Assembly: GCA_964016885.1 (NCBI GenBank)
Contig: OZ024751.1
Coordinates: 46,748,001 to 46,812,000 of the forward strand
Direction: 5' to 3'
From: Eledone cirrhosa
Taxonomy: Eukaryota
Length of the DNA stretch: 64,000 nt
Shown: positions 1,445 to 59,642 of the stretch, in pieces
How positions within the stretch are numbered: the stretch's first letter is position 1
Layout: every line of letters begins with the position of its first letter
The notes under the pieces: generated by a model
What the model saw: only the letters and a program-made list of their open reading frames with translations
Told to the model about the DNA's origin: nothing
Database searches by the model: none
Program-made: the position numbers and the translations under genes

Positions 1445-2198
1445 CATAACATCACTAACAACATCCTATACTTATAACATCCCTAACAACACCCTATACT
1501 TATAACATCACTAACAACACCCTATACTTATAACATCACTAACAACATCCTATACTTATAACATCTCTAACAACACCCTATACTTATAACATCACTAACA
1601 ACACCCTATACTTATAACATCCCTAACAACACCCTATACTTATAACATCACTAACAACACCCTATACTTATAACATCACTAACAACACCCTATACTTATA
1701 ACATCACTAACAACACCCTATACTTATAACATCAATAACAACACCCTATACTTATAACATCAATAACAACACCCTATACTTATAACATCACTAACAACAC
1801 CCTATACTTATAACATCACTAACAACACCCTATACTTATAACATCAATAACAACACCCTATACTTATAACATCACTAACAACACCCTATACTTATAACAT
1901 CACTAACAACACCCTATACTTATAACATCACTAACAACACCCTATACTTATAACATCACTAACAACACCCTATACTTATAACATCCCTAACAACACCCTA
2001 TACTTATAACATCCCTAACAACACCCTATACTTATAACATCACTAACAACACCCTATACTTATAACATCACTAACAACACCCTATACTTATAACATCACT
2101 AACAACACCCTATACTTATAACATCCCTAACAACACCCTATACTTATAACATCACTAACAACACCCTATACTTATAACATCACTAACAACACCCTATA
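1445..2198. repeat. 28-bp minisatellite (CACCCTATACTTATAACATCACTAACAA)n
   Basis: About 27 near-identical tandem copies ending about 40 bp before the exon at 2239. Confidence 0.97.
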
Positions 2199-2238
2199 CG
2201 TTCTTAACATACTTGAACCAAATTTTGCTATATTCCAG

Positions 2239-2318
2239 GATGGACATAGACCAAAGTGCACGCAGAAACGCACAAGATTACTTCAACGTTCAAGATCCAG
2301 ATTTCTACGAATTTGAAG
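2239..2318 (+). CDS. CHS: Chitin synthase, first exon visible in window (internal coding exon)
   Basis: ttccag|G ATG GAC...TTT GAA G|gtaag. Encodes MDIDQSARRNAQDYFNVQDPDFYEFE, matching the animal chitin synthase MDxDQSARR...DPDxYEFE block. Phase-1 end joins the next exon in frame. Confidence 0.9.
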
Positions 2319-2369
2319 GTAAGATTCAAAACACTTCAAACACATAGACACTTAAAACCACAACGATGG

Positions 2370-2533
2370 TTTAAGAAATAAGGGTCAACTTTGAGGATGA
2401 CATTTAAGAAATAAGGGTCAACTTTGAGGATGACATTTAAGAAATAAGGGTCAACTTTGAGGATGACATTTAAGAAATAAGGGTGAACTTTGAGGGTGAC
2501 ATTTAAGAAATAAGGGTCAACTTTGAGGGTGAT
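2370..2533. repeat. 33-bp tandem repeat, about 5 copies
   Basis: Unit TTTAAGAAATAAGGGTCAACTTTGAGGATGACA. Confidence 0.95.
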
Positions 2534-2678
2534 TTTGCTCCTATTTCTAACAGACCAAGCAATTGCTTCCATATTCAATCCAACGATACATCTATTGGTT
2601 GCATCCTGTCATTGACCCGGTTAAATAGGTACTTGCTTCAGCTCCCATGATTAGTGGTAGTGGTCTCTTCGGTCACAG

Positions 2679-2796
<118 letters not shown>

Positions 2797-2995
2797 TATA
2801 TATAAATAATAAATAAGAGAGACGATTTTATTCCTACATTTTTATTCTATTATATAATTCTATTATACGTATTTCAATAGCGCCCTGGCATGTTTTCATC
2901 AGATAGTGTAATATATATATAAAGAGAGAGAGAGAGGGGTGTGTGTGTGGGGGGGATAGTTAGATAGATAGATATAGATATGTATATATGTATGC

Positions 2996-16230: not shown

Positions 16231-16231
<1 letters not shown>

Positions 16232-16403
16232 ATATCAATAATATTAATAAATGGAAAATATCTTTATAAAACGATATTTTATATATAAAGATATTTTCCA
16301 TTTATTAATATTATTGATATTAATGATACTCTGGATTAAAACTGTTGAGTGCTTCTAATCTGTTGTAAAATTAACTTTGTTGAACAATCAACAAACCAAA
16401 TAA
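16231..16403 (+). mobile_element. Truncated copy of hammerhead fold-back family 1 (short hairpin plus tail)
   Basis: Palindrome 16231-16321 (aatatcaataatattaataaatggaaa.../...tttccatttattaatattattgatatt), followed by a tail homologous to 58794-58876 (tgttgagtgctt...caacaaa). Confidence 0.75.
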
Positions 16404-16409
16404 CTCATT

Positions 16410-16540
<131 letters not shown>

Positions 16541-16546
16541 CAGAGG

Positions 16547-16613
16547 CCCTTGAAATATGTATAATAAAATAAATATGGTTTCATAAATATAGTTTCCATT
16601 TATTAATATATTG
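16547..16613 (+). mobile_element. Fragment of family 1 (3' half of the hammerhead)
   Basis: cccttGAAA TATGTA TA ataaaata aatatggtttcataaatatagtttccattt, nearly identical to 58724-58790. Confidence 0.8.
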
Positions 16614-16650
16614 TATATATATATATATACACATATATATATATATATAT

Positions 16651-34071: not shown

Positions 34072-34369
34072 TTGTTTCGACACACGATTTCATATCAAAA
34101 ACCTCGCAAAACTAATTCATCGCCATTATATATATATATATATATATATATACCTAATACTAATACTTTGTACTGCACTCTTTGTTATTGTTTTTGTTTT
34201 TTGTTTTAACTTATATATATATATATATATATAAGCAAAAGGGATATTTAATTTGTTGGTAATTCAACAAATATATATGTTTATAACTGATTCGAAGCAC
34301 TCGACTGGTTTTCTGGAGTATAATATCAATGATATTAATAAATGGAAACTATATTTATAAAACTATATT

Positions 34370-34430
34370 TATTCTATTATATATATTTCAAGGGTACCAA
34401 AAGTTTGGTACGCTCTCATCAGATAAAATA
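34370..34430 (-). ncRNA. Minimal type-I hammerhead ribozyme
   Basis: tattttat CTGATGA gagcgtacc aaactttt ggtaccctt GAAA TATATA TA atagaata. Stems I and II pair and the core is intact. Confidence 0.72.
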
Positions 34431-34798
34431 CAAAGTTTGTTTTATAAATATTGACATATCCAGGAAGGAGATCTTAACGGTTCAAGTTTTTCCTGGATAG
34501 TAAAGGAAAGAAGGGAAAGAGAGGAAAAGTCAAATATTTCAAGTTATTAAGATGAATATGCAAATGAGCTTCTTCCTACACATACATATATATATCCTAA
34601 TAATTATTTTAATCTACCTAGCGTCTAAAAATAACGTTTTTTTCAGCCCTATACCTCAACCTCATTTGCATATTCATCTTAATAATTTGAAATATTTTAC
34701 CTTTCTTCTCTTTCCCTTCTTTCCTTTACTATCCAGGAAAAACTTGAACCGTTAAGATCTCCTTCCTGGATATGTCAATATTTATAAAACAAACTTTG

Positions 34799-34858
34799 TA
34801 TTTTATCTGATGAGTGCATACCAAAGTTTTGTACCCTTGAAATATATATAATAGAATA
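34799..34858 (+). ncRNA. Minimal type-I hammerhead ribozyme (mirror arm)
   Basis: tattttat CTGATGA gtgcatacc aaagtttt gtaccctt GAAA TATATA TA atagaata. Stem II partly decayed. Confidence 0.6.
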
Positions 34859-34901
34859 AATATGGTTTTATAAATATAGTTTCCATTTATTAATATCATT
34901 G

Positions 34902-34933
<32 letters not shown>

Positions 34934-50303: not shown

Positions 50304-50455
50304 TTAACCGTAGAGCAAAACCGTGTTTCAGAAGATCCGTTAAGGGTGAAAGCAGTGATTCTTTGCTTAAACTTTAAAACTTTAATCTGTTATTTTAATA
50401 TATATATATATATATATAATATATAAGAACAAAAGATGGTTAAAAGAGTTCCATG

Positions 50456-50526
50456 TATTTTATTATGCGCATTTCAAAAACAAATATCATCATGCAATAA
50501 TATTTGTGTTTTCATCAGATAAAACA
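50456..50526 (-). ncRNA. Minimal type-I hammerhead ribozyme (left arm)
   Basis: Reverse complement of the 50680 motif, core intact. Confidence 0.72.
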
Positions 50527-50679
50527 GGAGAACATGATATGAAGGCTAAAAAACACTTGTGGATAGTGCAGTTTTAAATCAACATATCAACATATGTTGA
50601 TTTAATCAACATATCAACATATGTTGATTTAAAACTGCACTATCCACAAGTGTTTTTTAGCCTTCATATCATGTTCTCC

Positions 50680-50750
50680 TGTTTTATCTGATGAAAACAC
50701 AAATATTATTGCATGATGATGTTTGTTTTTGAAATGCGCATAATAAAATA
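50680..50750 (+). ncRNA. Minimal type-I hammerhead ribozyme
   Basis: tgttttat CTGATGA aaacacaaatattatt...gatgatgtttgttttt GAAA TGCGCA TA ataaaata. Confidence 0.75.
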
Positions 50751-50871
50751 CATGGAACTCCTTTAACCTTCTTTTGATCTTATATTATGTATACTCCAGT
50801 CCTACAAATTGTAGAGTGCTTCTTATCCGATATCTGCATTGCTTTATTGTACTACAATAAAACCCACCTCC

Positions 50872-50952
<81 letters not shown>

Positions 50953-57400: not shown

Positions 57401-58466
57401 GTTGCTACCACCACCGCCGCCATCACCACCACCACCACCACCACCACCACAACAACAACAACAACAACCACAAAGCTCACCGCCTCCACTAGCATCATCA
57501 CTAACCCCACCGCCACTGCCACTACCACACCCAACGCCGCCGCCGCCGCCACCACCGCCGCCAACAACAACAACACCTCTACCACCACCACCACCACCAG
57601 CACCACCGCCGCCACCGCCACCACCACCACCACCACCACCACCACCGCCGCCGCCGCCGCCATACACAACCACCACCACCAACACCACCCACCATCACCA
57701 CCACCAACACCACCCACCATCACCACCACCACCACCACCGCCGCCACCATACACAACCACCACCACCAACACCATCCACCATCACCACCACCGCCGCCAC
57801 CGTACACAACCACCACCACCAACACCATCACCACCACCGCCGCCACCGTACACAACCACAACCACCAACACCACCACCATCACCACCACCATCACCACCA
57901 CCACCACCACCACCGCCACCACCGCCACAATAACCACCATTACTGTAATTACTGCAATAAAGCTTAGAAATTACAACCATTGGTTTGCGAAGTTAATATG
58001 TCGAGTGGAGATGACACGTGATCTGTATGGTGGCTTTAGATAGCACACGTGACCACTGTTAGTATTTGAGGTGATTGTTAGAGAGGGGGGTGAAGAATAG
58101 GGCATGTGGAGTAGAGATTTGAAGTAGGTGGTGATGGTGTTGGTGGCGGAGGTAGAGGTGATGGTGGTGTTGATAGCGTTGTGATGGCAGCGGTGGTGGT
58201 GGTGTTGTGTTGGGGTTGGTGATTGTTGTATGCGTTGTGATGGTAGTGGTGGTGGCGTTGTCATGTTGGGGTTGGTGGTAGTATAAACATATACATACAA
58301 ATATACATACATACACTCACTCACTGACTCACGTATAACACACACACACACACATACACACACACACACACACACACATACAAACACACACACACACACA
58401 TATATATATATATTTATATATATACAATATATTATCAAATGGAAACTATATTTATAAAACCATATT

Positions 58467-58532
58467 TATTTCATTATACATATTTCAAGGAGCACCAACG
58501 CAAATTATGGTGCGCTTTCATCAGATAAAATA
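58467..58532 (-). ncRNA. Minimal type-I hammerhead ribozyme (left arm)
   Basis: tattttat CTGATGA aagcgcacca...tggtgctcctt GAAA TATGTA TA atgaaata. Confidence 0.68.
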
Positions 58533-58680
58533 TAATATAGGTTAGTTTTATAAATAAATATTGACATACCCTGAAAAAATGCAACCATTCTAATAACTCC
58601 ACTATCCAGGAGATTCCAACCAGAATGGTTGCATTCTTTAAGGGTATGTCAATATTTATTTATAAAACTGATCTAAATTA

Positions 58681-58746
58681 TATTTTATCTGATGAAAGCA
58701 CACCATAATTTGCCTTGGTGGCTCTTGAAATATGTATAATGAAATA
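58681..58746 (+). ncRNA. Minimal type-I hammerhead ribozyme
   Basis: tattttat CTGATGA aagcacacca...tggtggctctt GAAA TATGTA TA atgaaata, followed by AATAAA. Confidence 0.68.
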
Positions 58747-58876
58747 AATATGGTTTTATAAATATAGTTTCCATTTGTTAATATATTGTATATTTACTCC
58801 AATAATTTGTTGAGTGCTTTATATCAGTTATAAAAATATTTTGCTGTTGTATCCCAACAAATTAAATATAACCTCT

Positions 58877-59248: not shown

Positions 59249-59642
<394 letters not shown>

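Follow-up and report, generated by a model that had tools for sequence, protein, structure and literature searches.

The window (the whole stretch of DNA analyzed here, 64 kb in length) carries several fold-back repeats lodged in (TA)n tracts, which raises the question of what kind of element they derive from and how their inverted arms came about. A sequence-only reading had taken them for a non-coding, retrozyme-like family that yields double-stranded RNA along with a ribozyme active from either strand. The origin of the tails and inverted pLTRs of Penelope-like elements (PLEs) is called an open question in passages of PMC8557442, and reconstitution has so far been achieved for a single PLE, according to passages of PMC11167929.

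Copies in the window and their coding relatives

The copies are listed in Table 1. As had been proposed, they lie in (TA)n and show two arms with a one-sided tail, and the motif CTGATGA-stem II-GAAA-TATRTA-TA-stem I was found in the arms at 34.2 kb and 58.4 kb and in the linear copy, with five cores at 34422(-), 34807(+), 58524(-), 58689(+), and 59437(-). A sixth copy, overlooked earlier, is a fold-back of a younger related family (family B; 50421-50872). Half-site 1, described below, was present in all five tail-bearing window copies (five pattern matches in the window versus 0.05 expected). A 23-nt tag running from GAAA through stem I gave 30,318 exact matches in the 3.0-Gb genome and none for a reversed control, indicating that the window copies are not chance occurrences. 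The presumed spacer at 34.6 kb proved to be additional 3′ UTR belonging to the tail-less arm. The two arms of this copy directly adjoin, and the tail-less one extends ~85 nt further 5′ than its tail-bearing partner. The 16.2-kb copy does have the fold-back layout attributed to it, but it ends at 16412 rather than 16403, lacks a hammerhead, and belongs to a different subfamily. Likewise, the two arms of one copy are indeed more alike (96% and 93%) than are different window copies (78-81%), but no more so than copies of the same subfamily elsewhere (93-97%).

Table 1. Repeat copies and their parts in the 64-kb window.
Feature	Position	Strand	Basis or relation
Tail-bearing arm, subfamily A34, ends at site 2	34236-34571	-	95-96% identity to long copies L064/L065/L071
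Tail-less inverted arm, ends at site 1	34569-34907	+	End-class mapping
Minimal type I hammerhead, stem II intact, predicted cut after 34378	34370-34430	-	Sequence
Hammerhead, stem II damaged, predicted cut after 34850	34799-34858	+	Sequence and folding
Half-site 1 of sequence ACTC-loop-GAGTGCT, immediately 3′ of site 1	34296-34319	-	Pattern match
B, 5′ strand of helix; partner B′ in 5′ UTR of read-through copies	34281-34290	-	Sequence
Tail-bearing arm, subfamily A58; hammerhead core 58689, half-site 1 58796-58818	58591-58876	+	
Tail-less inverted arm, hammerhead core 58524	58420-58589	-	
Single tail-bearing copy, subfamily A59; core 59437, half-site 1 59309-59330	59249-59519	-	
Short fold-back lacking a hammerhead, with tail-less arm at 16231-16279 (-), tail-bearing arm at 16284-16412 (+), and half-site 1 at 16328-16353	16231-16412		
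Single tail-less fragment of 76 nt, starts within hammerhead stem II	16546-16621	+	
Family B fold-back: tail-less arm 50421-50590 (-), tail-bearing arm 50618-50872 (+); cores 50518 (-) and 50688 (+), half-site 1 50793-50820	50421-50872		

In an Rfam search of the whole window, the 150 of 712 matches listed were all microsatellites resembling miRNAs, and the output of a repeat finder was dominated by microsatellites. Contigs aligned to 34240-34900 covered the repeat alone, with none spanning the copy. Further hammerhead-like cores occur in TA-rich settings at 2902(-), 6927(-), 31461(-), and 29840(+); they have no match to the family references and are probably stumps of other PLE families. Several Hydra stumps were seen stacked within one (TA)n tract (L164, L355, L374). 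Another repeat, which has perfect internal palindromes, often shares these tracts (L015, L021, L022; 34920-35066 in the window), suggesting hot spots of nested insertion.

Judged from sequence, the window pieces are 5′-truncated 3′ ends of Hydra-clade PLEs, consisting of a pLTR, a minimal hammerhead, and an 81- to 86-nt tail. The tail-bearing arm at 34.2 kb is one such end; two of the long copies L064, L065, and L071 encode a GIY-YIG C-terminus upstream, and in this exact subfamily the endonuclease C-terminus lies 1.5 kb upstream. Walking 5′ from relatives led through an AT-rich 3′ UTR into a frame with reverse transcriptase (RT) and GIY-YIG domains; the extension toward such an ORF suggested in the sequence-only reading was reached, including for the 34.2-kb subfamily in L065, L071, and L075. 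L060 is a complete unit, in the order inverted tail-less pLTR, pLTR+tail, ATG, ORF, 3′ UTR, and pLTR+tail. An open frame of 732-793 aa with YRDD was present in 17 of 17 copies, all picked for long frames; the RT query gave 44,569 first-look candidates, of which 134 were scored.

The protein of L277 (737 aa, single ORF) consists of an RT followed by a C-terminal GIY-YIG domain, with YRDD at 352 and Y617..YVG630. It has RWR, an RWK-type motif, at 37 and DKT in place of DKG at 118 (DK[TS] in 81/82 aligned proteins), together with a CxCx5C linker and CxxC/CxH around conserved E and N (596-604, 694-700, 721-723). A CCHH motif was absent from the frames, as judged by eye. Pfam and PDB sequence searches with the protein gave no direct match, and GIY-YIG and RVT_1 were found in part of the members among its Atlas neighbors. 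The best named homolog was from Argonauta hians (39%), which, together with genome size and a SINE, points to an octopus as the likely host. These features are shared with the published Hydra clade (Hydra-1_Obim, Penelope-13_HM, Penelope-1_NV), and all protein features given for it in section 11 of PMC8557442 are present, as are a sense, putatively self-cleaving hammerhead in the pLTR, (TA)n targets, partial tandems, and an inverted 5′-truncated copy with a one-sided tail; the assignment rests on these protein and element features. The protein of L411 is 36% identical over 1-724, and its hammerhead region matches, by eye, the one listed for Penelope-1_NV.

Published work already covers the Hydra clade together with its hammerheads, its preference for (TA)n targets, and its inverted copies, including the Octopus family Hydra-1_Obim, and a supplement lists Penelope-13_HM with an inverted copy and a hammerhead on both strands (PMC8557442). 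The elements described here are new members of this known clade, of other families and with another hammerhead than Hydra-1_Obim. Their units of 3.7-4.2 kb (periods of ~4.17 kb in L060 and 3.66 kb), with a 3′ UTR of 1.0-1.7 kb, are longer than the under ~3 kb of published members, a length that PMC8557442 words as "generally" and not as a criterion. Their tail of 81-86 nt compares with 30-40 nt, and their copy number is very high.

These frames bear directly on the retrozyme-like reading. Most copies are short, the core is conserved, and the family B junction recurs in many copies of 98-100% identity, as a fold-back master would give. However, the same ends run into a 3′ UTR and then an RT + GIY-YIG frame, the 5′ ends vary, the recurring family B junction lies on five haplotype classes common to linear copies, and folding predictions leave the core paired within the fold-back. 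Applied to the whole family, the non-coding reading is refuted by the coding frames upstream of the same ends, and we regard a retrozyme-like source of double-stranded RNA and two-strand ribozymes as very improbable; the Penelope-like, (TA)n-associated character and the minimal type I hammerhead, also put forward earlier, were supported. Non-LTR retrozymes (Li et al., bioRxiv 10.64898/2026.07.22.740005) likewise have a type I hammerhead derived from PLE pLTRs, but passages of that work describe them as tandem units that are non-coding and have one hammerhead apiece, whereas the copies here are scattered remnants of coding elements and occur in the window singly or head to head. The sole tandem array found consists of 3.66-kb coding units. 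A MITE or foldback DNA transposon fits no better, given the one-sided tail, variable 5′ junctions, single-arm copies, and RT frame; the symmetric TIRs that would have pointed to one did not materialize, and TSDs are unreadable in (TA)n. By this account, palindromes that look like MITEs or retrozymes in such genomes would in many cases be PLE stumps.

The array (L269-L271; G000:C6:38.07-38.09 Mb) runs head to tail, with six hammerheads ~3.66 kb apart and frameshifted ORFs. Its family is very young, since 40 of 40 scored 5′ UTR matches were 100% identical. In L033, an open frame beside the Hydra insertion (2090-2875, minus strand) is, from its translation, presumably sulfotransferase-like.

The hammerhead motif in source elements and stumps

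Among 241 family A arms, non-majority letters made up 1.1% in 11 core columns versus 10.7% in 128 neighboring columns; for 89 arms whose loci had been selected on the basis of an ORF or the twin motif, the values were 2.1% and 11.6%. The core is more conserved overall than its flanks, a comparison that the sequence-only reading had named as a test, but some flanking blocks within family A were as conserved as the core, so the test rests on comparison across families. Over ten subfamilies the core was constant, stem I was altered in pairs, and helix III stayed palindromic, with stems I and III covarying. These comparisons indicate that selection acts on the hammerhead motif in source elements. 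In the window, the predicted cleavage site had been correctly placed after 34850. The G-U changes reported in stem I do exist, but at 34854 and 58741; 34851 and 58739 are the first positions of stem I strands. Similarly, stem II pairing is kept in the minus-strand copy at 34370-34430 but damaged in the plus-strand copy at 34807 (-3.2 versus -9.3 kcal/mol). The Rfam search suggested as a check gave no hammerhead match for 34340-34460, nor for a family B read-through stretch.

The arms of a fold-back lie head to head, with the antisense arm transcribed first, whichever strand is used. The core was fully paired in six of six predicted fold-back folds, and for this reason a hammerhead active on either strand, as envisaged earlier, is unlikely; the folding models make activity in stumps unlikely in general. 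The hammerhead is probably a conserved passenger of the pLTR that would cut only in tandem or protein-bound RNA, not in the fold-back. Copies of this kind could supply tens of thousands of potential long double-stranded RNA hairpins in a host lineage, likely octopus, that is known for heavy RNA editing. In family E (L319, L323, L330), the twin motif and a Hydra ORF occur without the canonical CTGANGA core, for which a variant identified by eye, having one additional base and a stem II that is long, may substitute.

The minimal PLE hammerheads of Cervera and de la Pena (2014; PMC4209133) are likewise type I, with a short palindromic helix III (TATATA, TATGTA, TGCGCA) and a long helix II. According to passages of that report, activity as monomers is not expected, and the motifs need dimers and cut poorly. 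Families A and B differ in their AUA triplet, their weak A-U stem I, and the lack of an Rfam match. PAc, the Poseidon element of Anolis, inserted in vitro without requiring its hammerhead (Frangieh et al., 2024; PMC11167929).

Two 3′ end sites, twin half-sites, and helix B:B′

In seven families, 369 of 380 mapped non-read-through 3′ ends fell in two clusters 81-103 nt apart, with modes 0-6 nt 5′ of a half-site; the mapping is blurred by TA microhomology, and the loci were partly chosen for having a tail. Left out of this count were family F, whose reference held a TA run, and B2, E, and G, with few copies. Among 75 insertions at 70 loci taken in contig order, each of the 18 fold-backs joined one arm ending at site 1 to one ending at site 2, for which simple arithmetic gives p ~3e-6 if the arms chose their sites independently. 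In family B, 41 of 41 pairs, chosen for the tail arm, have a tail-less partner. Single arms among the 75 insertions ended at site 1 in 31 cases, at site 2 in 24, and elsewhere in 2. That 55 of the 75 insertions are single arms is counted against the scheme favored below; some single arms are probably unrecognized halves of fold-backs.

Each end site adjoins a half-site of the form RCTC-loop-GAGYRCT. In read-through copies, site 1 lies just 5′ of ACTC-loop-GAGTGCT and site 2 just 5′ of GCTC-loop-GAGCRCT, and the 10-12 nt that follow the first half-site pair with those that follow the second to form a closing helix, B:B′. The spaced twin pattern gave 835 matches versus 26 for a control. Cognate B:B′ pairing in divergent families averaged -10.4 kcal/mol, versus -4.0 kcal/mol for non-cognate pairing, and ranked first of 5,040 permutations over seven families, with eight null controls. 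Predictions of B′ written before the divergent families were fetched proved near-exact at three loci and held in part in families D and E. In an alignment of 14 copies from families A-C, related sequences from which the structure was itself derived, pairing was seen in 91% of cells and two-sided change in 15 cells (0/500 shuffles), with five pair types at one column. Helix B:B′ was weak in 3 of 12 representatives (E2, F, G) and in L410 and L438, which was counted on the negative side.

The arrangement recurred in an independent set of metagenomic elements. In the 46 of 77 loci whose match reaches the N-terminus, one half-site was found in 33 and two in 20 (controls, 2/0 and 1/0). The twin half-sites were 54-82 nt apart, and none of 20,000 permutations paired as well as B:B′ in the 20 elements, also after three near-duplicates were dropped; two valid shifted-window controls were null, and another was discarded because its window ran past the end of a contig. 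Internal 3′ ends lay within 4 nt of a half-site in 10 of 12 cases, one of them judged by eye. By eye, the published consensi Hydra-1_Ajap (sea cucumber) and Hydra-1_Crog (copepod) also have both halves and B:B′, the half-site stem of the latter being GCCC/GGGC. Since the half-site loop was structured at the level of shuffled sequence (z 0.18) and the 4-bp stem is nearly invariant (GCTC/GAGC in 39/40), the half-site may be read as sequence, which was likewise counted on the negative side. A pseudoknot between the two GAGYRCT motifs, present in an RNAalifold consensus, was rejected: in 19 of 20 metagenomic loci each motif is GAGCACT, leaving the two unable to pair.

Neither the twin element nor the one-of-each rule seems to have been described before. 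No description of the twin motif was found in the openly available literature searched, and the motif was absent from passages of PMC8557442, PMC11167929, PMC4209133, PMC3846280, PMC13282606, PMC8967140, PMC8556966, and bioRxiv 10.64898/2026.07.22.740005; the passages on the published Hydra clade mention neither half-site nor helix.

Of the 20 metagenomic helices, 8 had a sense duplex more stable than the antisense one, and for half-sites the count was 11 of 40; the octopus-type alignment had 7 G-U cells versus a few mismatches. Because folding energies do not favor the sense strand, either strand may be the acting one, and a DNA-level signal stays a live rival, in which the twin motif would serve in DNA or cDNA for endonuclease (EN) recognition or resolution, trimming a longer intermediate at two sites. 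Consistent with this, Craig et al. (PMC8557442) ascribe the Penelope tail to EN-mediated resolution, cutting by the Drosophila EN required the tail, according to a citation in PMC11167929, and TA-rich sequence resembling the target precedes both sites. We nevertheless consider it unlikely, as long-range compensatory pairing would be useless in duplex DNA and, in PAc, the start sites were located on RNA at the ends of the tail (PMC11167929).

A proposed scheme for the origin of the fold-backs

The account that we favor, and hold to be reasonably probable, is that the copies are 5′-truncated insertions of protein-coding Hydra-clade PLEs with ends at two half-site-flanked sites, and that fold-backs form when two proteins prime on opposite (TA)n strands during insertion and their cDNAs are joined head to head. 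The half-sites would be protein-binding sites, and the protein would act as a dimer. Two Hydra proteins would sit on the twin half-sites, with helix B:B′ bringing the start sites together and so positioning the two copying enzymes, and each protein would prime from one strand of the (TA)n target. Both cDNAs would usually stop early, and their 3′ ends would be joined head to head into a fold-back; a single successful priming would leave a single arm. The earlier proposal that the hairpin forms at insertion is most likely correct. By analogy with PAc in vitro, the template would be a read-through RNA spanning pLTR, tail, and 5′ UTR. Since PAc nicks and extends both strands of an AT-rich target and starts at two internal RNA sites that bound the tail (PMC11167929), the two-protein scheme is the simplest extension of what is known. 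PAc differs in that it belongs to another clade and has its starts in an AC-rich stem loop that lies within the ORF, at 111-118 nt, whereas both ends here lie upstream of the ATG, and passages of PMC11167929 report neither a twin motif nor a one-of-each rule. Also counted against the scheme are the use of the PAc start sites by both strands without preference and the PAc tail of 30-40 nt.

A competing route is self-priming (snap-back) of one cDNA, or priming on an antisense template; the twin motif would then do no more than set the points at which copying begins or ends. Palindromes at inverted junctions have been read in this way in rotifer PLEs (PMC3846280), family B junctions center on a 6-nt palindrome, and the arms share private variants, eight of which were common to both arms among the 41 family B pairs (2 A>G, 3 T>C; one locus counted twice). 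Such variants fit one template per event or later gene conversion, and the latter was counted against the two-protein scheme. When an editing signature was looked for, 38 of 89 single-arm variant calls were an end artefact. Against snap-back, 12 of the 18 fold-backs have a tail-less arm that extends beyond its partner on the 5′ side by 10 nt or more, with the tail on the other arm alone, so that neither arm is a copy of the other; the 34.2-kb window copy is asymmetric likewise, as are L031-L033, over kilobases. Snap-back is hard to hold for asymmetric junctions, and as an account of the fold-backs we find it quite improbable.

We consider it an even question whether a two-fold RNA platform, so far undescribed, is common to Hydra-clade PLEs, including cnidarian-type, mollusc, echinoderm, and copepod members. 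In such a platform, twin half-sites clasped by a covarying helix would load one RT/endonuclease subunit per start site and one event would write two cDNAs from opposite strands, explaining both the PLE tail and the inverted pLTR. With its compensatory changes, its fixed distances to both ends, and the one-of-each rule, this short cis-element, found across the clade, makes the two-primer mechanism testable by mutation and rescue.

The 5′ ends were also clustered. Family B arms (50590-50618 in the window; L123-L152, L183-L212) have one 5′ hot spot ~255 nt from the tail end, and 16 of 53 arms, on five haplotype classes, carry the same 8-nt duplication at the junction. This fits a discrete RNA 5′ end with telomerase-like slipping and re-copying, or inheritance from a fold-back master. 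In family A (L153-L182, L339-L378), 5′ ends cluster ~200-210 and 160 nt ahead of the first GAGTGCT and frequently coincide with CTATCC; these positions are upstream of the hammerhead and not at its edge.
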